The position numbers and the translations under genes were made by a program. From the NCBI GenBank assembly GCA_040752415.1, contig JBFMGU010000302.1:1-12243 (forward strand): a stretch of 12,243 nucleotides of DNA. The letters run 5' to 3'. Source of the DNA: Myxococcota bacterium (GTDB lineage: Bacteria; Myxococcota; JACRCW01). Every line of letters starts with the position of its first letter. The first letter of the stretch is position 1. Below the pieces are notes generated by a model. It was not told the DNA's origin. It ran no database searches and saw only the letters and a program-made list of their open reading frames with translations. Of this stretch, positions 1,726 through 11,919 are shown piece after piece.

Positions 1726-3171
1726 TTATTCGCGGATGCGGACGATCAGCGCGTCCGGTCCGCCGTTGCTGGCTGCTCCACGTCCCTCGGGCACGCTGAC
1801 CGTGTCCTCGAGCGAGCCCGTGAAATACACCACTCCCAGACCCGTGATGCTCAGCGACGTGGCGCTCTCATCCCCGGGTCCACCGACGGAGCGCGCGGTG
1901 CCGGGCTCCCCGTTGTAGTCCGTGCTGAGGATGTGGACGTCGGTGCCGCCCACCGGTGTCAAGGTGGTTTGTCCATAGGTGAAGGGCGCATCAAACGAGC
2001 CGAGCATCAAGACCCGCAGGATCAACGTGACGCCAATGACCGACACCGGCGCGGGCGGCTGGAGAGCCCAGGTGAGGGCGCCCGTGTCGTCGAAGGTGAG
2101 GATGTGCTGACCCGCGGCGGCGCCACCCGGAGCGAGGTCATGGGTGCCTTCCATCAGCAGCGCCATGCGGTTCCCCTCGATGGGAAGGGCAAGCTGCAGC
2201 GGCACGTCCTCCCCCACGCCGCCCACACGCACGGCCCAGGAGCGGGAGCCGCCTCCGGTCTGCAACACCAGGAAGATGTCCGTGCCGCCCTCGCTGGTGA
2301 GCGTGTGGCCATCCACGGTGAGGGTGTCCTGGAAGGAGCCCGCGATCAGCAGCTCCCCGGTGGAGATCGTGGTGGCTTCCAGCGCCTCGTCGTCACCCGG
2401 CCCGCCAAAGCCCTGCGGGGACTGGATCAACCCCTGCTCGTCAATGCGCAACACGAACGCGTCGCGCTGACCCACGGAGGTGATCACCCCGGTGGCCACG
2501 TCCATCTCCCCGGTGAACGAGCCGGCCAGGATGCCGTCGTGCGTGAAGGTGCGGGCCACGTCGTCACCCGCGCCGCCAATCCGGCGGGCGAAGGACATGG
2601 TGCCGGCGTCGCTGAAGTGGGTCACGAAGATGTCGCGCTGTCCCACGCTCACCAGCTCCGTGCCCTCCAGGTCCAGCGTGCCGGAGAAGGTCCCGGCCAC
2701 CGCCACGCCGTCGTCGGAGAAGATGGGCCGGAGGGAGCGCGCGGAAAGCTCCACGGAACCGCGGAAGGGTTGCTTGAGCCAGAGCAGCTGTCCGTCGGAG
2801 CGGAACGCGGCCAGGAAGATGTCGTGCGGGCGCGTGGCCTGCAGCGTGATGCCGTCCAGGGTCATCGTGTCACTGAAGGTACCGGCCACGTAGACCTGGT
2901 AGGCGCGTCCCACCGTCAACGCGATTCCGTGGTCCTCCCCGCTGCCACCCAGCGCCTCCGCGAAGTGCGCATAGAGATCTTCGCCCCAGCGGACATGGCT
3001 GGTGATGGAACCGCTGGATGAGCTCGAAGCGGATGATGATGACGTGGAGCTGGAGCTTCCCGCGGCGCCCGAGGAGGTGGACCCCGACGAGGAAGTGCTG
3101 GTCTCACCGCCCGTGGCGCCACTGCAGGCAGCGAGCGCGTAGACGCCAGCCGAAATCCAGACGAATCGCAA
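1726..3171 (-). CDS. Lipoprotein with SBBP-like beta-propeller repeats, ~481 aa
   Basis: Start placed at TTG 3171 (GGAG 6 nt upstream), giving MRFVWISAGVYALAA-C with lipobox LAAC (Cys16). A Ser/Thr/Gly linker is followed by repeated GGxGxD...(V/I)AG(S/T)F...D(I/A)F(V/L) blades. Confidence 0.85.
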   Translation of the reverse strand: MRFVWISAGVYALAACSGATGGETSTSSSGSTSSGAAGSSSSTSSSSASSSSSGSITSHVRWGEDLYAHFAEALGGSGEDHGIALTVGRAYQVYVAGTFSDTMTLDGITLQATRPHDIFLAAFRSDGQLLWLKQPFRGSVELSARSLRPIFSDDGVAVAGTFSGTLDLEGTELVSVGQRDIFVTHFSDAGTMSFARRIGGAGDDVARTFTHDGILAGSFTGEMDVATGVITSVGQRDAFVLRIDEQGLIQSPQGFGGPGDDEALEATTISTGELLIAGSFQDTLTVDGHTLTSEGGTDIFLVLQTGGGSRSWAVRVGGVGEDVPLQLALPIEGNRMALLMEGTHDLAPGGAAAGQHILTFDDTGALTWALQPPAPVSVIGVTLILRVLMLGSFDAPFTYGQTTLTPVGGTDVHILSTDYNGEPGTARSVGGPGDESATSLSITGLGVVYFTGSLEDTVSVPEGRGAASNGGPDALIVRIRE

Positions 3172-3200
3172 AGGAGGCTCCGTGGGAAGACGCGGAGCCA

Positions 3201-3229
3201 AGCTTAGGACAACTGCGGGTGAAGGCGAA
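3201..3229 (-). promoter_or_regulatory. Possible sigma70-type promoter for the lipoprotein operon
   Basis: Minus-strand TTCGCC-N17-TAAGCT, with the -10 about 30 nt upstream of the TTG start; the -35 match is weak. Confidence 0.3.
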
Positions 3230-3277
3230 GCGAAAATCAGCGCTGAAAGGCTCACCACCCCGCGCGCACGGCTTGCG

Positions 3278-4780
3278 CTACTTCCGCTGCAGCTTCTGGA
3301 ACTCCGGCACGTTCTCCAGCGTCTCGAACTCCGGGCCACGCAGGTCCACCACCTCCAGCTGCCCGTTCTTCTTCAGCTCCAGCAGGTACTTCATGGCGTT
3401 GTTGGTGTTGCCCTTGGCGGCGTGCGCGCGCGCCAGGTCCATCAGCAGCAGCGTGGGGATTCCGCGCGCCACCTCGCGCTCGGTGGGCGTGAGCTGCTCG
3501 GCGGCACGCAGCTGCTCCAGCGCCTCGTCGGCCTTGCCCATGAGCAGGTAGGCGTAGCCCAGGCGCACGCGCGGGGTCATGCGGTTGGGTGTCTGCTCGA
3601 CGCTGCGGCTCAGGTGCGTCACCGCCTCGTCGAGGAAACGCGCGTCCAGCAGCCGCTCGCCGAGGTTGAGCTGGTAGAAGGGTGAGTCACCGCCGGACAA
3701 TGCCAGCGCGGCGCGCGCGTGGGCCATGGCCTCGTCGGGCTGGTCGGCGCGGTAGGTGGCGTAGCTGAGGCGGTAACGCAGGTACGGGCTCTGCGGCACC
3801 TGCGCCGCCGCCGCGGCGAATGCGGCCTTGGCCTTGTCCCACTGTTGCGCTTCCATGTGCAGCTCGCCGGTGAGCCGCAGCACGTCGGGGTCACGCGGAC
3901 GCGCCGCCTGCACCTTGCCCAGCAGCGCCAACGCCTCCGCACGTCGACCCGCGGAGAACTCCTGCCGCACGCGCGCCAGCAACGGCAGACGCTCCAGCGG
4001 GTGCGCATCCACGTACGCCGCCAGCAGCTTGCCCGCGGCCGCATCCCCCGCCAGCGCGCGCGTGGCGAGCGAGACTCCCTCGGCCATGGGGTTGGTGGCG
4101 TCGGCGCGCGCGTCTTCACACGCGGTCTGCACGTTGGCGGGGATGGCCACGTCACGACCCTTGATGCCCGCACGCTCCAGCGCCACCGCCGCGAACGCCA
4201 CGCAGCGCACGTACCCCACCTGTCCCTTGGGCGAGGTGGGCACCGCGGGCAGGGTCCACGTCGACACGCCCAGCTCCGTGGTCAGCGCGGCGGCGATCTT
4301 TGACAGCGCGTCGGTGGGCGTGCCGGTGAGGTTGACCAGCGGCTTGCTCCGGGCCGGCGTCCCGCTGAGGACCTTCACGTCCCAGAGGAAGCCGCCCTTG
4401 GGCGCCGGCGCATAGGTGCCAAACACCACGTGCGAAGCGCCCGAGAGCTGGGCCAGCCGCGCCGCGGTCCGCTCGTCCAGGAGTGCGCCCAGCGGGATGC
4501 CCAGGTCGTCCATCATCTCCGCCTGTGCGCCTTGCGTGACCACGTTCACCGACGTGCTGGCCAGCGCCGCCTCCTCCAGCACCACGCTCACCAGCGCACC
4601 CAGGTGACGGTCCTCCGTCTTCACCGACTGCGCGGGTGCGAGCAGGACCAGCGCCACGTTGGGCAGCGGCGCCGGGTTGTTGGCGACGACGGGAGCCGCG
4701 GCGGGCGCGTCCGCCAGGGCAGGCAGGGACGCGCCCAGCAGCGGCAGCACGGAGAGCGGGAGGCGGAGGAAGTTGCGCAT
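3278..4780 (-). CDS. Exported tetratricopeptide-repeat protein with N-terminal FlgO/CsgG/TolB-N-like domain, 500 aa
   Basis: ATG 4780 follows AGGAG. Signal peptide MRNFLRLPLSVLPLLGASLPALA. The segment 'LDERTAARLAQLSGASHVVFGTY' is typical of FlgO/CsgG-like folds. Several TPRs (e.g. PRDPDVLRLTGELHMEAQQWDKAKAAFAAAAAQVPQSP) and a TPR-capping C-terminus (PEFETLENVPEFQKL). Confidence 0.85.
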   Translation of the reverse strand: MRNFLRLPLSVLPLLGASLPALADAPAAAPVVANNPAPLPNVALVLLAPAQSVKTEDRHLGALVSVVLEEAALASTSVNVVTQGAQAEMMDDLGIPLGALLDERTAARLAQLSGASHVVFGTYAPAPKGGFLWDVKVLSGTPARSKPLVNLTGTPTDALSKIAAALTTELGVSTWTLPAVPTSPKGQVGYVRCVAFAAVALERAGIKGRDVAIPANVQTACEDARADATNPMAEGVSLATRALAGDAAAGKLLAAYVDAHPLERLPLLARVRQEFSAGRRAEALALLGKVQAARPRDPDVLRLTGELHMEAQQWDKAKAAFAAAAAQVPQSPYLRYRLSYATYRADQPDEAMAHARAALALSGGDSPFYQLNLGERLLDARFLDEAVTHLSRSVEQTPNRMTPRVRLGYAYLLMGKADEALEQLRAAEQLTPTEREVARGIPTLLLMDLARAHAAKGNTNNAMKYLLELKKNGQLEVVDLRGPEFETLENVPEFQKLQRK

Positions 4781-5042
4781 GGCTCCTGAATAGCAACCGT
4801 CGGAATCCCGCGGAAGCCAGGTCCACGGCGGGGCGTGGCGGGCGCGCCCGTCGCCAAGACCCGCTGGCGGTGCTAATCGGACGGCACGGCAGCGCGTTTC
4901 CGCGGCGCGGGAGGATGAGGATGGCCATCTGCAACAGCGTGGCAGCCGCGGCGTGGGCCGGTTCCTCCGGCGCGGGGACGGGTGGGTGCTGCCGGACGTG
5001 GAGCGCCGGGCGCGCCTCCCGTGACGACGGGAAAGGCCGCGC

Positions 5043-6548
5043 ATGAGCGCGGATGTGATCCAGGTGATGCTGCTGGCCGGGGGGCAAAGCTCGTTGCCCT
5101 GGTTGCGCGCCGAGCGGTTGAGCGTGGAGCACGTGACCACGCTGGCCACGGGGATGGAACGGCTGGCGCGCGGTGGCGTGGACCTGGTGCTGGTGGGGGA
5201 GGGTCTCCCGGACAGCACTCCGCACGACGCGCTGTTGCGCATCCACGTGGAAGCGCCCTCCACCGCCGTGGTGATGCTCCTGGCGCAACCCACCGAGGAG
5301 GAGACGCTCATCCTCATCCGCCAGGGCGCCGACGACGCGTGGCCGCTCCAGCCCACCGACGTGGCGCAGGCGCTGTGGCGGGTGCGCCGCACCGTGGCCC
5401 ACAAGCGCGCCGAGCGGAACGTGCAGCACCGGCTCATCATGGCCGACCGCATCACCGCCATGGACGCCCTGGTGAGCGGCGTGGCGCACGAGATCAACAA
5501 CCCGCTGGCCGTGGTGATGGGCAACCTGGACTTCGCGGCGCTGGAGGTCCAGCGGCTGATGGCCGGGGACCCGCGCGCCGAGGAGCTGCACAAGGCGGTG
5601 CGGGATGCCCGCGACGGTGCCGAACGCGTCATGAAGCTGGTGCGCGACCTGTCCGTGCTGTCCAACAGCCGCCATGACCGACGTGGACCGGTGGATGTGC
5701 GTCACGTCGTGGACAGCGTGGTGAGCCTGGTGTGGACGGAGATCAAGCACAAGGCGCGGCTGGTGAAGCAGTACGCGGAGGTGCCGCCCATTGACGCCAA
5801 TGAGCCGCGCCTGGGCCAGGTGTTCATGAGCCTGTTGCGCAACGCGGCGCAGGCCATTGAGACCGGCAGGCCCGAGGACCAGGAGATCCGCCTCAGCATC
5901 CGGCCCCGGCAGCTTGGTGGCGTCGTGGTGGAGGTGGCGGACACCGGCAAGGGCATCCCGGCCGAGGACATCGAGCGCATCTTCGACCCGTTCTTCACCA
6001 CGCGCTCCCCCGGCAGCGGCACCGGGCTGGGCCTGGCCATCTCCCAGAGCATCATCAGCGCCATGGGGGGCACCATCTACGTGGAGAGCAAGGAGGGGCT
6101 GGGCAGCACCTTCCGCGTGGAGCTTCCCGGCGCCGCGCCCTCCCACGTCACCACGCCGCCCCCGCAGCAAGCCGTGGGCCCCCGCCGCGCGCGCGTGCTC
6201 ATCGTGGATGATGACCCCATGGTGGGGCGCAGCCTGCGCCGGCTCCTCTCCCGCGCGCATGACGCCACGCTGGCCTTCAGCGCCGCGGAGGCCCTGGAGC
6301 TGCTGCGCGCCGACCCCACCTACGACCTCATCCTGTGTGACCTCATGATGCCGGGGAAGAGCGGCATGGACCTCTTCGAGGAGGCGGTGGCGCTGAAACC
6401 GGAGCTGGGGCCGCGCTTCGCGTTCGTCACCGGCGGGGCCTTCACGCCGCGGGCGCGGGAATTCCTCTCCCGTGTGACCAATGACCGCTTCCAGAAGCCG
6501 GTGGACGTGGCCGCCCTGCTTGCCCTCATCCAGCGCCACCTCGGCTGA
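5043..6548 (+). CDS. Cytoplasmic hybrid sensor histidine kinase/response regulator (pseudo-REC, HisKA, HATPase_c, REC), 501 aa
   Basis: H-box VAHEINNPL (His149), N-box LLRNAAQA, G1 DTGKGI, F-box IFDPFFTT, G2 GTGLGL. C-terminal REC has VLIVDDD, CDLMMP (Asp433), TG and KP. No transmembrane segment. Confidence 0.95.
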
Positions 6549-6712
6549 GCCCACGACAACGGTGTCGCGGTGCCCGCCGACGGGAGCACGGCGGGATCCG
6601 CTCGTCGGAACAGGCGCGTCCGCTGCGCGGTTGCACGGGCAGAGCACGCCGTTCTGGAACGCGACGCGCGGTGCGTCACCGGAGGCGTGAGCACGCAGTC
6701 CTGGAGGTCCGC

Positions 6713-7474
6713 ATGTCCCCCATTGTGATTCCGTCCCCGTCGGAAGAGCGCGTGGCGCGCGGCAGCCTGCCGTGGGTCCCGGGCATCCTGTTCCTGGTGG
6801 CCGTGCCGGTGGTGCTGGCCGGTGCCGCCTACACCTACGACACGCTGGCGCACGAACGCGCCGCCGCCGAGATGGCGCGCCTGGAGCTGCGGGAGACGCG
6901 CTCACGCCTGGCGGAGCTGGCCGGGGAGATGCAGGCCAAGGAGGGAGAGCTGAGCGCGCTGCGCGCCACCTACCAGGAGCTGGAGCAGCAGCTGCATTCC
7001 GAGATCGGTCGTGGGGAGGTGCAGCTCATCAACGACGACGGGAGGATCCGGGTGCAGCTGGTGGACCAGATCCTCTTCGAGTCCGGGAAGGCCACGCTCA
7101 GTGAGAGCGGGGAGGACCTGCTGCGCCGGGTGGGCGGCGTGCTGCAGCGGCTGCAGGACAAGCAGGTCCAGGTCTCCGGTCACACCGATGACAGCCCGCC
7201 GGTGGGCGCCACGCGCGAGCAGTTCCCCACGAACTGGGAGCTGAGTGTGGCCCGCGCGGTCACGGTGGTGCGCTACCTGGGTGAGCGCGCGCACGTGCCG
7301 CAGAAGCGCCTGGTGGCGGCGGGCTTTGGCCAGTTCCACCCCGTGGGCAACAACGCCAACCACGAGGGGCGCGCGCGCAACCGCCGCATCGAGATCCTGC
7401 TGACGCCGATGGTGGAGGTGCAGCCGGTGGAGAAGCTCAGCGCGGGAACCACGACGTCGAGCGGGCATTCCTGA
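6713..7474 (+). CDS. MotB-like/OmpA-family peptidoglycan-binding membrane protein, 253 aa
   Basis: GGAGG SD before ATG 6713. One TM helix and a coiled coil, then an OmpA-like domain with ILFESGKA, VSGHTDD, TNWELSVARAVTV, GFGQFHP and NRRIEI. Confidence 0.92.
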   Translation: MSPIVIPSPSEERVARGSLPWVPGILFLVAVPVVLAGAAYTYDTLAHERAAAEMARLELRETRSRLAELAGEMQAKEGELSALRATYQELEQQLHSEIGRGEVQLINDDGRIRVQLVDQILFESGKATLSESGEDLLRRVGGVLQRLQDKQVQVSGHTDDSPPVGATREQFPTNWELSVARAVTVVRYLGERAHVPQKRLVAAGFGQFHPVGNNANHEGRARNRRIEILLTPMVEVQPVEKLSAGTTTSSGHS

Positions 7475-7818
7475 TGGGGTGACAGAAGTCGGAATCAGAG
7501 GTCCGCAGGTTCCGTTGTGGCAGCGCGGCTGGAATCCTGGGTACCACTTGGCGCGGGCTGACGAACCGCTGCCACCGTCCAGCAGCCCGGAACTCACCGC
7601 GCGCAACAACGTGACCAACACGCAGGTGGTGTTCCCGCGGGCGACGCTACCGCCCGACGGAGGCGGCGCGGCTAAGAGCCCAGGACACCGCCGCTTGCGT
7701 GGCGTTGCGCGGACTCACTGCGCCGCCTTTGGTGGTGGGGTCACGGGGTGGGCAGTGGCGGCCCGGACGTTCGCTGGCGATTCTGGAACGGCTCATCCTC
7801 CTTTGCTACTCAGCCGGT

Positions 7819-8420
7819 ATGCCTCGTCGCCCGAAGTCCAAACACACGAGCGCCGCACCGACGCGCACCTACTCGCTCGAACGGCTCTACGTTGATCAGG
7901 AGCCGACGTGGGTGGTGGATGCCATGCCCTTTGTCCTTGCTTGGCTGGCATCTCGTGGCACCGGACAGCCGGCGACCTTTGACGTCAGCGTCAAGTTGAG
8001 TGGCACCAAGGCGCGCCCGCAGCCGCTCGCGCTGTCGTGGGACATGGGTCAGCTCGTGGCACGGGACCCGCACCTCTCGGAGCGCGTTCGACGCCTCCAG
8101 GCGGGCAAGAGTGTCCTGGTCGAGGACGTGACCAAGATCGCTGCCTATGGGCTCGCATTGGCGGCCATCTCGGTCTTCTTGCCGGGTCGTCGCGTCACCG
8201 ACTTTCGCCAAGGGATGCCCCGGACCTGGTCTTCGAGACCAACGGCGCCGTCGATGGGGTCGAGGTTGCGGGCCGTTCCACGGGTGGCTGGGGCGCCCTC
8301 AACTCCGAGCTGAAGGTGAAGTCCGCCGAGTTGAAGGGCCGCAGCGATGTCCGGCGGGCCCACCTCTCCCTGTGGTGCGCCTCCCCCCGTGTCTCCCATT
8401 TCCACAAGGTGAAGCCATGA
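7819..8420 (+). pseudogene. Small PD-(D/E)XK-like nuclease (~200 aa if repaired), split by a -1 frameshift near 8212-8222; real lesion or sequencing error
   Basis: The frame from ATG 7819 reads ...EDVTKIAAYGLALAAISVFLPGRRVTDFRQGM. The -1 frame continues APDLVFETNGAVDGVEVAGRSTGG...AHLSLWCASPRVSHFHKVKP*, and its TGA overlaps the next gene's ATG (ATGA 8417-8420). One inserted base in GGGATGCCCCGGAC restores a single ORF. Confidence 0.7.
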
Positions 8421-9421
8421 TCGACGAGGTGCGCCACCGCGCCCTGGTGGAATCGGGTGCGCTCAAGATGCGCGCCAGCGCGCTGCTGGCCGAGGGACGA
8501 GCGGAGGACCGGTTTGAAGCCGCAGTGCTCTTCCACGAGGCGGCTCGCGCCGAGAAACGCGCGCTGAGCGCAACGGAGAACCCCTCAGCCACGGAGCGCT
8601 TGGCGCGGTGGGGAGAAGCGTGCGGGTGCCTCATCTCCGGCCTGGACCCGCCGCAGGCGGCCCGGGCCTGGGGGGAGGTCCTGAACGTCGCTGCATCGCT
8701 GCGTCCACGGACCGCCACGGCAACCCTCAACCGGCTCCGCGAGGCGTTCCTGAGGCAGAACGCGGCGTTCGTCGCAACGCTGAGGGATGCCCCGCTGTTG
8801 CAGGACGAAGCCACGCTGGTTCCCGCCGAGGACAAGGTCCGACGCCAGGTGCTCAAACAGATCGATGGGTTGCTGGAGCTCTTCCCCGGTGTTGCGCACT
8901 TGTGGTGGCTCCGCTTCCGCAATCAGAAGCAGGCAGGTGATCTGCATGGCGGGTGGGAGTCACTGCGCAAGGCTCAGCTGCTTGCGCCGGACAATCCGAG
9001 CTTTGCTGCCATTGCGCTGTGGCTGGCTCCTCAGGTCTTGTCGCGGCGTGATGCGGAGGCCCGGCTTGATGCCGCCTATGACCAGGTGGCCACCGCTTCC
9101 GCCGAGGTGTGCCTCTTCATTGCGCTAGGCAAGTTGAAGGCAGCAGCTGAGACGCGGCGCGACAGGGAGGCGCTGCACGCCGCGCTTCGCGCTGCCAGCG
9201 TCGGGTTGTCTCGGAGTGGAACCTACCCGGCCCTGAGAGCTTCGCTTTACGCCGTGCAGCTCGCCTCGGAAGTCATGCTCGGGGGAGGGACGCCGAACGC
9301 GGAGGTGCTCTACCGCGCGGGGGTGGCCGGGGACTTTGTTGGCGCAGGCCTGCCCGTCACTGATGTGCTGGGAACAATTGCCGCGGTGGGGGAGCGGAGC
9401 ATCGAGCGCTTGGCGGCGTAG
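8417..9421 (+). CDS. Hypothetical all-alpha-helical, TPR-like protein, 334 aa
   Basis: ATGA overlap with the upstream gene. Ala/Leu/Arg-rich helical sequence with a TPR-like unit (LELFPGVAHLWWLRFRNQKQAGDLHGGWESLRKAQLLAPDNPSF) and an EACGCL motif. No signal peptide or TM segment. Confidence 0.85.
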   Translation: MIDEVRHRALVESGALKMRASALLAEGRAEDRFEAAVLFHEAARAEKRALSATENPSATERLARWGEACGCLISGLDPPQAARAWGEVLNVAASLRPRTATATLNRLREAFLRQNAAFVATLRDAPLLQDEATLVPAEDKVRRQVLKQIDGLLELFPGVAHLWWLRFRNQKQAGDLHGGWESLRKAQLLAPDNPSFAAIALWLAPQVLSRRDAEARLDAAYDQVATASAEVCLFIALGKLKAAAETRRDREALHAALRAASVGLSRSGTYPALRASLYAVQLASEVMLGGGTPNAEVLYRAGVAGDFVGAGLPVTDVLGTIAAVGERSIERLAA

Positions 9422-9481
9422 GCGCCACCCGAGTCGCCAGCTGCCGACGCAGTACCCGTCCAGGAAACCGGAGGCGCCGCT

Positions 9482-11281
9482 TCACTCCGTCGTCACCACG
9501 GCGCGCGCGGCGCGGATGGGCGCATCCAGCCCCTTCACGTTGGCGTCGAACCGCTCCAGCTGCCGGATGGACCACAGCCACCCCTGCGCCTGCGCCCGCT
9601 CCGCCAGCTCCGCCGTCATCACCACCTCACCGCCCTGCGCGGTGCCCTGCAGGCGCGCGGCGATGTTCACCGTCTGCCCGAAGTAGTCGATGAGCTTGTT
9701 GGCGGTGGCGGCGTAGACCGGCCCAATGTGCACGCCCACCCGCAGGAACACGTCCGGCGCGTATCTGCGCTCGGCGCGAAACGCGGGAAAGGCGCGCTGC
9801 ATGTCCACCGCGGCGCGGACCAGGGATTCCTCGTCGGGGAACGCGGCCATCACGGCGTCACCAATGGTCTTCACCAGCGTGCCCTGGTGCCGCGCGATGA
9901 CCGCACCCAGCAGCTCGAAGTGCTCCTGCACCAGGCGGAACGCCACCGCATCCCCCGCGCGCGTGTACAGCGAGGTGGACGCGGTGAGGTCGGTGAACAG
10001 CAGGCCCACGCGCTGCACGGTGAGGCTCAGGTTGGTCCGCAGCACCTCCGCCGAGAACATGCGACGGAACTCCGGCAGCAGGCTCAGGTGCATGGCGGTG
10101 GCCGCGGTGTTGGCCCAGCCCAGGCGCTCCAGGCGCAGGTGCCGCTCGACGTCGAGGGCGTGCTCCACCGTGATGGTGCCGCCGGGAGCCACGGTGAGCG
10201 CGGCGGGCTCGGCGGTCTCGCCCACGCGGGTCCGCACCTGCGCCGGCCCGTCGGCCACCACGTCCACCGCCACGGTCAGCCCACCCCGCACGAAGATCCG
10301 GCAACGCCCCGCGGCGCCAGGTGCGGTGACCTCCACGGTGCCGCGCGGCGGCAGGATGGCCTGCGCCTCCACGTGCGGGAACAGGAACGGACCGGAGATG
10401 CAGAACGGACGCACCTCCCATTCCCGCACCGTCGAGGACGGACGGAACGTGGCCTCCACGGAGCGGTCGAACTCCAGGCCAAAGGAGATGTCGCAGAACT
10501 GGCAGCGGCCGTGCTCGGCAATGGCGGAGAGCGTGGGCGCGGTCTCGGTGCCGGTGAGACAGCTGGGACAGACCAGCTCCCAGGTCAGCTCCAGCAGCCC
10601 GGCGTTCACCGCGTGCAGGAACGTGATCAGTGTGTCCCGTCGGGGAAGTCGCCACGCATCCGCCAGCGCGAAGGGACGCAGGTGGCGCACGTCGTGATCG
10701 TCGGCGGTGGCCACGTGCTCCACCAGGCGACGCGCAATGGCGCGCTGTGCCTCCGTCACGCTTTTCACGGTGGCGTCCGCGGCGCGCTGGAAGGCGTCCT
10801 GCTTGAGACGGGGCGGCGGCACTCCGTAGGCGGGCTTGTTGCGGCGGATGTTGTCCCCGCACCGCTGGAGCGAGGAGAACACGTCGCGGAACACCATGCG
10901 GCCCACCAGCGACGCCAGCGGTGACACCAGGGGCGAGCGCGGCACGGCGCGGAGACGGAGGCGCACCTGGGTCCGCTCCGACGTCACCGGGGTCAGCTCC
11001 CAGCTCATCACCGCCCAGGCCAGCGGTCCGCTGAGGAACACGCGCTTGCCGTGGAGGAACCGGCCCACCTGCCACTCAAGGGGGTGCTCCTCGTATTCCA
11101 GCGTGGCCGGGCCGGCGCTGCGCTTGAACACGAAGCGTGCGGCGCCTTGCGCGTGGGGCGTGATGTCCGGGACACCCACGCCGGTGGCCTGGTTGCCGCG
11201 GTCCGAGTCCGCCACGACGTCCCAGGCAGCCTGCAGTGGAAGCGGCCACTCCAGGGTGTCGGTCCACATCAGCGTCTTCAT
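9482..11281 (-). CDS. Class III adenylate/guanylate cyclase with N-terminal SRPBCC/START-like and DUF5939-like Zn-ribbon regions, 599 aa
   Basis: Catalytic motifs LFTDLTAST, VKTIGDAVMAAF and IDYFGQTVNIAARL (both metal Asp, ATP-specifying Lys/Asp, Asn/Arg). CPSC...CQFC pair; N-terminal 'PLQAAWDVVADSDRGNQ' SRPBCC-like pattern; GGGGAG SD. Confidence 0.93.
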   Translation of the reverse strand: MKTLMWTDTLEWPLPLQAAWDVVADSDRGNQATGVGVPDITPHAQGAARFVFKRSAGPATLEYEEHPLEWQVGRFLHGKRVFLSGPLAWAVMSWELTPVTSERTQVRLRLRAVPRSPLVSPLASLVGRMVFRDVFSSLQRCGDNIRRNKPAYGVPPPRLKQDAFQRAADATVKSVTEAQRAIARRLVEHVATADDHDVRHLRPFALADAWRLPRRDTLITFLHAVNAGLLELTWELVCPSCLTGTETAPTLSAIAEHGRCQFCDISFGLEFDRSVEATFRPSSTVREWEVRPFCISGPFLFPHVEAQAILPPRGTVEVTAPGAAGRCRIFVRGGLTVAVDVVADGPAQVRTRVGETAEPAALTVAPGGTITVEHALDVERHLRLERLGWANTAATAMHLSLLPEFRRMFSAEVLRTNLSLTVQRVGLLFTDLTASTSLYTRAGDAVAFRLVQEHFELLGAVIARHQGTLVKTIGDAVMAAFPDEESLVRAAVDMQRAFPAFRAERRYAPDVFLRVGVHIGPVYAATANKLIDYFGQTVNIAARLQGTAQGGEVVMTAELAERAQAQGWLWSIRQLERFDANVKGLDAPIRAARAVVTTE

Positions 11282-11381: not shown

Positions 11382-11410
11382 TTGACGGGGATTTCAAGGG
11401 GTGCCATTCC
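11382..11410 (+). promoter_or_regulatory. Possible sigma70-type promoter giving a leaderless or near-leaderless mRNA
   Basis: TTGACG (11382-11387)-N17-CATTCC with TG at the extended -10 position, 8 nt before ATG 11419; no SD before the ATG. The -10 match is poor. Confidence 0.35.
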
Positions 11411-11418
11411 TCGCGCCC

Positions 11419-11919
11419 ATGAGCGGACATCCAGTGTTTGTGGCGGTGCGGCGCGGCGACGGAACCATTGAGCAGGTGCGGGTTGGCACCGCGTACAAGG
11501 ACGGCGAGAACTTCCGCCTGGAGCTGGGCCAGCTGACGATTGGCGGCGCGGAAGTTCCCGCCACGTCGTCACGGCCGGCGGCGGCGCGCCCCGCGGCGGG
11601 CGGTGGCGGCGGCGGGATGGTGTTCCCCAACTACGGTCGCAGCAAGGGCATGCCCATCTCCGGCGCCAGCGCGCAGGACCTGGAGTTCTACGCCAATGGT
11701 TGTCGTCGGACGCTGGCCGACCCGAACAAGGCGCGCTGGCATGACAAGGAGCGCGAGCTGCTCGCCGCCATCGAAGCGGAGATGGAGCGGCAGGGCATCA
11801 GCGGCGGCGGAGGCACGTCCTCGCGCGGCAGCGCGCCCCGGGATCCCGGTTCTGCTCGCTGGGGCGCACCGTCCGGTGAGGAGCCGCCTCCCCTGTCCGA
11901 CGACGACATCCCGTTCTGA
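11419..11919 (+). CDS. Hypothetical two-domain protein with an SSB-type acidic C-terminal tail (DDDIPF), 166 aa
   Basis: Strongly GC-biased third positions. Small beta domain, Ala/Gly linker, FPNYGRSKG helical domain, Gly/Pro linker and the C-terminus PPPLSDDDIPF*. Confidence 0.9.
   Translation: MSGHPVFVAVRRGDGTIEQVRVGTAYKDGENFRLELGQLTIGGAEVPATSSRPAAARPAAGGGGGGMVFPNYGRSKGMPISGASAQDLEFYANGCRRTLADPNKARWHDKERELLAAIEAEMERQGISGGGGTSSRGSAPRDPGSARWGAPSGEEPPPLSDDDIPF

Follow-up and report, generated by a model that had tools for sequence, protein, structure and literature searches.

A frameshifted nuclease-like gene and its helical partner in a Myxococcota contig: a candidate two-gene conflict module of an undescribed family

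What is the role of two small, overlapping genes that sit among ordinary genes in a bacterial contig and match no catalogued system? The contig in question (JBFMGU010000302.1 of assembly GCA_040752415.1, from a Myxococcota bacterium) is 12,243 bp long and was analyzed in its entirety; we refer to it as the window. It is contig C227 of an 11-Mb assembly (G000) in 520 contigs that has very few close relatives. A preliminary description, made from the letters of the sequence, took the first gene (gene 1) for a PD-(D/E)XK-like nuclease interrupted by a frameshift and the second (gene 2, together 7819-9421) for an all-helical partner resembling tetratricopeptide repeat (TPR) proteins, and proposed that the two form a two-gene conflict system without a name. 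Our best explanation, to which we give an even chance of being right, is that the pair is a translationally coupled conflict module of an undescribed family, in which the partner gates the nuclease, and that it has been inactivated here. The earlier proposal is supported, and the observations that it had said would speak against it did not turn up: the nuclease-type layout is predicted, with conserved acids, homologues of the two genes are adjacent, the distribution is patchy and non-core, and neither Pfam, PADLOC 2.0.0 nor NCBIfam returned a named system.

Gene 1 opens with the ATG at 7819 on the forward strand and reads, in frame 1, MPRRPK...EDVTKIAAYG...GRRVTDFRQG, and this frame continues through EDVTKIAAYGLALAAISVFLPGRRVTDFRQG. 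The family alignment resumes in frame 0 from about 8214 as (D)APDLVFETNGAVDGVEVAGRSTGG...AHLSLWCASPRVSHFHKVKP, with the motifs APDLVF, GVEVAGR, HLSLWC and, directly before the stop, KVKP. The gene can be divided into a 5' part (7819-8214, residues 1-132), which holds the N-terminal domain and helix alpha-1, and a 3' part (8214-8420, from 8214 or 8217 on, with the stop codon at 8418-8420), which holds the PD motif, GVEVAGR, the conserved Lys and HLSLW. Both frames align to homologues. A word-based search with gene 1 returned four intact homologues of 198-210 amino acids, to which the 5' part is 48-51% identical, and the 3' part is 45-54% identical to C-terminal halves of homologues. The need for a frameshift repair, as described earlier, can be narrowed to one missing base within 8197-8216 (20 nucleotides, versus 21 in intact relatives), for example in the GGG run at 8212-8214; when one base is restored, the spacing from GRRV to APD becomes 7 residues, as in intact homologues. 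We reject programmed -1 frameshifting, since the site lacks a canonical slippery heptamer and the aligned full-length homologues all do without a frameshift here. Because gene 1 is frameshifted, the window copy is probably dead; barring an error in the assembly, it is most likely a relic that has been inactivated. Gene 2 (8417-9421, forward strand, 334 amino acids) is uninterrupted, and its start overlaps the stop of gene 1 in an ATGA at 8417-8420, read directly from the sequence.

Do these genes belong to a family? They do, and the family is rare: an exhaustive search of 1.84e9 cluster representatives with a HMMER profile of gene 1 gives 109 matches at E<=1e-3, of which 78 reach E<=1e-10 and 37 reach E<=1e-30; fragments from short contigs make up many of the 109 matched clusters. 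Homologues of gene 1 and of gene 2 are found in 20 other loci at 25-59% identity, and both genes are, judged by sequence comparison, real genes rather than chance open reading frames (ORFs). Conservation was counted in a 37-sequence alignment of gene 1 products, using the numbering of the homologue P0012. Invariant are P133, D134, G146, E148, R152, K173 and S189; conserved in at least 90% of the sequences are E100, A106, A150, E185, W191, W72, L14 and L77. The three motifs singled out in the preliminary description (an acidic helix, PD and GVEVAGR) coincide with invariant or near-invariant columns: E100, P133-D134, G146, E148, A150 and R152. The window pieces hold all of the residues checked, namely these three motifs, the K173 equivalent and HLSLW. 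The alpha-1 Glu (codon 8122-8124) aligns with near-invariant E100; the PD Asp is encoded at 8223-8225, and the Glu, Ala and Arg of GVEVAGR at 8262-8264, 8268-8270 and 8274-8276, respectively.

Catalog searches brought no name. Pfam (copy of 2025) has no match at E<=0.05 to the window pieces of gene 1 or to any of the 37 full-length members; PADLOC-DB 2.0.0 (2023) has none at E<=1 to the gene 1 window pieces or the protein P0003, and none at E<=0.001 to the 37 members; and NCBIfam 20.0 has none to the two gene 1 members searched. Newer catalogs may hold a name for the pair, which is without a match in the versions searched. Among the titles and opening lines of abstracts retrieved, no paper concerned 'DUF7226' (a domain found in some partners, see below), and none from searches on defense systems or on myxobacterial DISARM or BREX concerned this family. 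The passage retrieved from PMC12458937 deals with TALON/TOTE systems, which are unrelated to the pair.

What kind of protein does gene 1 encode? The fold evidence comes from a model of the intact homologue P0012, which stands for the frameshifted window protein. A first model from 5 sequences had a predicted local distance difference test score (pLDDT) of 72.5, with residues 125-148 below 50, and its Foldseek matches were meaningless small GTPases; it is superseded by an AlphaFold2 (AF2) model from a 63-sequence alignment, with pLDDT 95.3 and a predicted template modeling score (pTM) of 0.92 (all five models at least 94.8). The gene 1 product is a two-domain protein of about 200 amino acids, with an additional alpha/beta domain, about 95 residues long, at its N-terminus. 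Its C-terminal half is modeled with helices at 97-118, 156-165 and 173-179 and strands at 126-127, 135-138, 144-154, 183-194 and 197-204, a core with the alpha-beta-beta-beta-alpha-beta order of PD-(D/E)XK proteins. Nucleases of that type carry an acidic residue on alpha-1, an Asp at the start of beta-2 and a further acidic residue on beta-3. In the P0012 model, E100 is on helix 97-118 (alpha-1), P133-D134 comes just before strand 135-138, placing D134 at the start of beta-2, and E148, A150 and R152 are on strand 144-154 (beta-3), so that the acid triad is in place; D134 and E148 are 14 residues apart, and K173 opens helix 173-179. The expected PD-(D/E)XK fold is thus recovered as a layout with conserved E, D and E, together with weak neighbor scores.

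Structure comparisons point the same way. In BFVD, most of the named matches, the best one included, are PD-(D/E)XK-type nucleases or exonucleases, with weak scores. An exhaustive structure search lists 50 matches, about 40 of which we take to be restriction-endonuclease-fold nucleases, namely Hjc, EndA/TSEN, Cas4, lambda-exo, RecE, bunyaviral cap-snatching domains, EcoRV, I-Ssp6803I, CdiA-CT and Hachiman, with 2qx2, 3n2q, 3ib5, 1vjk and 6rss among the exceptions; in a second search all 50 of the matches listed are restriction-endonuclease-type nucleases, again with weak scores. The C-terminal half of the gene 1 product is therefore predicted, from the model, to be a PD-(D/E)XK-like core whose active site departs from the canonical one (E...PD...ExAxR, followed by a distal Lys). 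The substrate may be DNA or RNA. EndA-type and CdiA-CT tRNase folds are among the structural neighbors.

What does gene 2 add? A word-based search with gene 2 alone found only itself, and its relatives were reached through the genes downstream of gene 1 homologues combined with an alignment query. Gene 2 is 38-40% identical to the partners in loci L002, L006-8 and L020 (38% over 295 residues for L002), 39% identical to the partners in three genomes of one genus and 35% identical, over the first 160 residues, to the partner in L004 (Sorangium sp. So ce131). The partners come in two forms with a common N-terminal helical domain of about 195 residues (in the window, approximately residues 1-195, 8417-9001), in which A42, A43, A49, E67, P78, A81, W85, G159, W164 and L190 are invariant across both forms. 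The short form, of about 335 amino acids with a TPR-like C-terminal half, is found in 19 of the 21 loci compared, including the window. The long form, of about 490 amino acids, is found in the other two (L004 and L025); its C-terminal half matches PF23871 (DUF7226), resembles DUF6575-DUF7226 proteins and has a winged-helix-like module. The long-form C-terminal half of P0121 (L004:6567-8015) and of P0122-P0131 is also like stand-alone DUF6575-DUF7226 proteins of Pseudomonadota (Atlas 0.95).

Long-form partners also give weak matches to the PADLOC model REase_II (E 2.7e-4 to 5e-3, at approximately residues 326-398), in 4 of the 17 partners searched and in long forms exclusively. Such matches, along with the PD-(D/E)XK-like fold of gene 1 and a type II-like N6/N4 DNA methyltransferase convergent with and directly downstream of the pair in L004 (PF01555 1.2e-29, MTase_II 1.7e-30), would suit a heteromeric restriction endonuclease of a restriction-modification system, one subunit being catalytic and the other conferring specificity or binding DNA. 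However, L004 is the one locus of 17 annotated with an adjoining methyltransferase (that of L035 is the DISARM component DrmMI), and the window lacks one. In the short-form partner, which is the common one and TPR-like, no DNA-binding domain was detected, and a host whose DNA is unmethylated could not survive an active restriction enzyme. Because a linked methyltransferase occurs in 1 of 17 annotated loci, the restriction-modification reading is weak, and we consider it very improbable.

Are the two genes a unit? In all 21 loci where gene 1 is full-length and more DNA follows it (the window, L002, L004, L005, L006-8, L015, L019-L030 and L033), the next gene downstream is the partner. Left out of this count were L003 (a 1.6-kb contig on which an insertion sequence, IS, interrupts gene 1), L031 and L032 (contig ends), L034 (a gene 1 tail remnant with a partial partner) and L010 (a 68-residue match, E 5.3e-4). 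In tblastn, the alignments of the two genes come within about 25 nucleotides of each other. The partner is found at 14 Polyangiales loci, and in L005 it comes after a gene 1 that an IS has cut in two. An ATGA or GTGA overlap can be read in L002, L004 and L006, and ORF coordinates give a 4-nucleotide overlap in L007 and L008.

The products of the two genes are also predicted to bind each other. For the natural L006 pair (alignments of 39 and 17 rows), the interaction prediction score from aligned errors (ipSAE) is 0.90 in 3 of 3 runs, versus 0.00 for the best of 3 controls; the runs share at least 97% of their contacts, and the partner has pLDDT of at least 89. The ipSAE mark was attained by 116 of 157 solved complexes and 2 of 215 mismatched pairs, counts that apply only roughly when, as here, the alignments are one's own. 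On the partner side, the predicted interface comprises residues 3-27, 53-74 and 98-110, within the conserved N-domain. On the nuclease side it comprises residues 28-39, 91-112, 129-136, 140, 143-146 and 177-188 (L006 numbering), which correspond to alpha-1 with its conserved Glu, the loop that leads into PD, the hairpin of beta-2 and beta-3, and the helix that carries the Lys. None of the catalytic residues (E104, P137-D138, E152, R156 and K179 in L006) is itself in the confident contact list of this model. The prediction supports binding of the nuclease by the partner and is silent on inhibition.

Gene 1 is damaged in more places than the window. In L005, an IS of about 1.7 kb (L005:6339-8045) lies between gene 1 residues 129 and 133; in L003, gene 1 is interrupted after approximately residue 70 by an IS that encodes a DDE_Tnp_1 transposase; and L034 is a remnant with the gene 1 tail and a partial partner. 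The protein P0111 (606 amino acids) corresponds to the N-terminal half of gene 1 at residues 3-126 and to a long-form partner, from its residue 17, at residues 144-601, and from its sequence looks like an in-frame deletion fusion without the catalytic half. Both in the window and in L005, gene 2 remains uninterrupted. Repeated loss of the nuclease would fit a costly or toxic effector. The IS site of L005 is within a few codons of the window frameshift, just before PD, and thus at nearly the same position.

These observations raise the question of a toxin-antitoxin (TA) pair. HigBA is a type II TA pair in reverse order, with the toxin gene first, and the pair studied here resembles it in having the presumed toxic gene first, a translationally coupled partner and a predicted tight complex. 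A plain pair of this kind would consist of a nuclease toxin and a stoichiometric masking antitoxin with no dedicated sensing, the nuclease being freed when the antitoxin is degraded or no longer made. The general description of type II TA systems, adjacent co-directional genes with binding products, agrees with the start/stop overlap, the strict pairing in 21 of 21 loci and the predicted complex, which covers the region around the catalytic residues; repeated disruption of the nuclease gene beside an intact partner is in keeping with it, and the winged-helix-like end of the long form could autoregulate. What sets the pair apart from HigBA is a partner of 334-500 amino acids, far above the usual antitoxin size, which retains its docking domain but ends in either of two unrelated C-terminal modules. 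Nor is there a match to known TA families: no Pfam toxin or antitoxin family was matched, and no Pfam DNA-binding or antitoxin family appeared in the partners searched (334 to approximately 500 amino acids), which leaves the short form with no DNA-binding domain that Pfam detects. A variable C-terminal module on a constant docking domain therefore argues for a sensing or targeting role rather than that of a mere antitoxin, and we regard the plain TA reading as unlikely, though still a rival to be taken seriously.

How is the pair distributed? Gene 2 is found, among 61 genomes (G000 and its 60 nearest), in G000 only. The gene 1 profile matches 5 of 401 genomes in the phylum of the window (G000, three genomes of one genus and one weak match, so 4 of 401 firmly), with the one-genus matches being 3 of the 172 genomes of that family. 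In Polyangiales it matches 15 of 301 genomes (about 5%). Two full copies each are present in G401 and G494, and a full copy with a remnant in G563; Sorangium sp. So ce131 has one long-form and one short-form pair. By its distribution among these genomes the pair is patchy and accessory in character, not core. A synteny test for insertion found domain-level cyclase matches only, and no orthologue, in the three nearest genomes. The lower use of GC-ending codons that had been noted by eye is borne out by the GC content at third codon positions (GC3), which is 0.78 and 0.82 in the two parts of gene 1 and 0.79 in gene 2, versus 0.91-0.93 in four flanking genes (OmpA-like, cyclase, histidine kinase and TPR). 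At other loci, the GC3 of the pair is also under that of its neighbors in most of those where a crude gene caller recovered the pair.

Such a distribution is poorly explained by a vertically inherited nuclease for housekeeping or repair, similar to a resolvase or a tRNA-splicing endonuclease and aided by an accessory subunit. In genus g81 the pair does occupy one syntenic place among metabolic genes, as such a nuclease might. Firm presence in 4 of 401 and 15 of 301 genomes, GC3 under that of the neighbors, varied and often defense-related or mobile contexts, frequent disruption of gene 1 and two full copies with different partner types in one Sorangium genome are all at odds with it, and of the explanations considered it is the one we find least probable.

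How might a gated nuclease module work? We infer nuclease activity, gating and immunity from the features above, as follows. The nuclease and partner would be bound to each other constitutively; the partner would restrain the nuclease, its N-domain clamping onto the nuclease face made up of alpha-1, the beta-2/beta-3 hairpin and the Lys helix. The exchangeable C-terminal module, a TPR-like solenoid or a DUF6575/DUF7226 winged-helix-like unit, would sense an invader-derived ligand; sensing would free or activate the nuclease to cut nucleic acid, whether DNA or RNA, and the cleavage would destroy the invader or abort the infection. In a more specific form, to which we give somewhat less than an even chance, the pair would be an unnamed anti-phage system whose Lys-less PD-(D/E)XK nuclease is silenced by the docking domain and released when the sensor binds an invader cue (a protein for TPR, a nucleic acid for DUF6575/DUF7226), present in about 5% of Polyangiales genomes and often lying inside BREX or DISARM loci, and its cost would be the reason for its frequent inactivation.

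Parts of this design have precedents. In Hachiman, HamA is held in check by HamB, which is the gating idea applied here. Hachiman HamA is a PD-(D/E)XK effector with HamB as its partner (domains as given in an excerpt of PMC11914072). The likeness lies in two genes and a small restriction-endonuclease-fold effector complexed with a larger controlling partner; unlike HamB, gene 2 is helical and TPR-like, without a helicase or ATPase domain, and there is no PADLOC Hachiman match. The nuclease (DREN) domain of short-Argonaute SPARDA systems differs in that the pair has no Argonaute/APAZ partner, no sequence match and a different partner family. Avs and other STAND-type systems combine TPR-like repeat sensors with nuclease effectors. 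The pair is like them in its presumed repeat-solenoid sensor coupled to a nuclease effector and in modular part exchange, and unlike them in having no NTPase domain, in being separate polypeptides joined by a docking domain and in having no PADLOC Avs match. The design of nuclease effector plus repeat or sensor partner is already known; the families and the active-site variant are new.

Several results weigh against a nuclease-based defense module, beginning with the active site. At the Lys position of (D/E)-x-K stands Ala, as A150 in at least 90% of the 37 sequences and in GVEVAGR of the window; with a near-invariant Ala at the canonical Lys position, catalysis is not assured. Foldseek with the P0012 model against PDB and BFVD gives nothing at E<=1e-3, the weak matches being rich in restriction-endonuclease-type nucleases. 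A profile search of PDB sequences gives one chance-level match (E 1.9) and no PD-(D/E)XK family, and hhalign against a 6-sequence YqaJ alignment from Polyangiales genomes gives a probability of 0.3%. Gene 1 is like the PD-(D/E)XK superfamily (lambda-exonuclease/YqaJ-type 3syy, archaeal Hjc and Cas4, the top structural neighbors) in secondary-structure order and in the acids on alpha-1, beta-2 and beta-3; it is unlike them in having no detectable profile relation, Ala for the beta-3 Lys and the additional N-terminal domain. Since the canonical Lys is missing, and no sequence profile links gene 1 to any nuclease family, it may have a non-catalytic role: an inert or non-nuclease restriction-endonuclease-like fold serving as a nucleic-acid-binding or scaffold subunit of a regulatory or accessory pair. 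Yet E100, D134, E148, R152 and K173 are invariant or nearly so in 37 sequences down to about 25% identity, the pattern of a preserved active site, and BamHI, BglII and Cfr10I are PD-(D/E)XK enzymes without the Lys or with a relocated one. Invariant R152 and the distal K173 may be candidate substitutes for the missing beta-3 Lys, and we find an inert fold rather improbable.

The sensor half of the proposal has its own weak points. In Pfam, P0003 has no family at E<=0.01, and the L002 partner reaches TPR_14 at E 0.02 with 16 bits, under the cut-off of 23.5. The TPR-like character of the C-terminal half of gene 2 is suggested by leads only, from language-model features and structure: window gene 2 is similar to TPR clusters in Atlas features (0.96) and in structure, with a template modeling (TM) score of 0.47-0.58 on an Atlas model of pLDDT 0.64. 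For the all-helical TPR-like partner described earlier, Atlas features and a TM score of about 0.5 are suggestive, and the Pfam TPR models remain under threshold. In addition, viral contigs searched with two peptide patterns yielded no relative.

Is the pair associated with other defense genes? At 13 Polyangiales loci, 54 of the 104 called neighbor genes within 5.5 kb were scanned with PADLOC at E<=1e-5; as a control, all 111 called genes of 13 arbitrary 13-kb regions of the same genomes were scanned, more fully than the module loci. A strong single case is L035 (G401:C1:9536500-9556400, the second copy of So ce131), where the pair, at approximately 8585-10215, is nested in a DISARM locus on the opposite strand to the preceding genes: DrmMI (1874-5911, E=0), GmrSD-like Orf5 (5911-7602, 4e-181) and an unassigned gene of 262 amino acids come before it, and DrmA (10290-13790, 4e-260) after it. 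The pair is adjoined by BrxC (1.7e-151) and IetS in L042, by BrxHI (3.9e-276) in L043, by a PglX fragment (1.5e-80) in L040 and by IetA (2e-73) and IetS in L046. L044 has an LmuB/mad3-like ATPase (6e-17), to which Pfam adds a resolvase, L004 the type II methyltransferase described above (1.7e-30), and L036 a kinase match only. The scanned neighbors in L037, L038, L039, L041 and L045 have no PADLOC match at E<=1e-5, although Pfam gives weak integrase matches in L041 and L045. The IetA/IetS-like genes near the pair (AAA ATPase and subtilase) are at L046:2328-5815 and L042:4531-6990.

Counting any PADLOC match at E<=1e-5, the module loci and the controls do not differ (8 of 13 in each). The control matches are Ser/Thr kinases (6 regions), sigma-54-type activators (2), a kinase with a TIR-like domain (1.8e-43) and three that are weak or incomplete; PADLOC models pick up kinases and sigma-54 activators of myxobacteria. 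With kinases and sigma-54-type activators excluded, matches at E<=1e-30 are present in 5 of 13 loci versus 1 of 13 controls (Fisher one-sided p of about 0.08, for loci that are not independent). The window and three g81 loci have ordinary genes around them and no defense neighbors. The association with defense islands is suggestive: it is qualitatively striking and is not established. Strong single cases, the DISARM nesting and the proximity to BrxC, BrxHI, PglX and IetAS, thus stand beside overall counts that are not statistically firm. In the control set, a region of G401 (L048:1-1662, reverse strand) encodes a 554-amino acid protein with a TIR-like domain (ThsB model, 1.8e-43) and a Ser/Thr kinase domain.

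Why would the pair matter? If the gated-nuclease explanation is true, an undescribed nuclease family and an undescribed docking domain would join the catalog of bacterial immune modules, the pair would show plainly how one effector can be coupled to either of two unrelated modules for sensing or targeting, and enzymology would gain a variant PD-(D/E)XK active site (E...PD...ExAxR with a distal Lys). Because current defense catalogs cover myxobacteria poorly, a family that occurs in about 5% of Polyangiales genomes and has no entry in Pfam, PADLOC or NCBIfam makes a useful lead. For this genome the practical point is modest: gene 1 appears broken and is best annotated as a pseudogene with an intact partner gene.

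The surroundings of the pair in the window agree with the layout in the preliminary description, two co-oriented genes between a MotB-like gene and a convergent cyclase gene, with the upstream gene now identified by its OmpA domain. That gene is at 6671-7474 (forward strand, PF00691 E 2.6e-17, GC3 0.92), and its stop at 7474 is separated from the ATG at 7819 by a non-coding spacer of 344 nucleotides (7475-7818). The spacer has no codon-position GC signal, sigma-70-like site, Rfam match or similarity to other loci of the module, and scans for repeats, terminators, promoters and Rfam families around the module gave nothing beyond chance. Downstream, the nucleotide cyclase gene lies on the reverse strand at 9482-11281 (PF00211, Guanylate_cyc, E 5.5e-20; PF19363, DUF5939, E 2.4e-15; GC3 0.92). 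Both flanking genes are outside the module.

In three g81 genomes, a membrane-anchored protein of about 450 amino acids and no known family is encoded 10-23 nucleotides upstream of gene 1 on the same strand (L012:8265-9608, L013:10427-11785 and L014:10164-11483). As a third conserved gene of the module this 448-amino acid g81 protein was rejected, being confined to those three loci. Elsewhere in the window, the ORFs at 273-1709 and 1729-3339 (reverse strand) and 11401-11916 (forward strand) have coding-like GC3 of 0.84-0.86 and no Pfam or PADLOC match. Counted from the earliest start codon, the ORF of the TPR protein (3281-5665, reverse strand) is 795 amino acids long and shares about 620 nucleotides with the gene of a hybrid histidine kinase (5043-6548, forward strand); the true start of the TPR gene probably lies further downstream.

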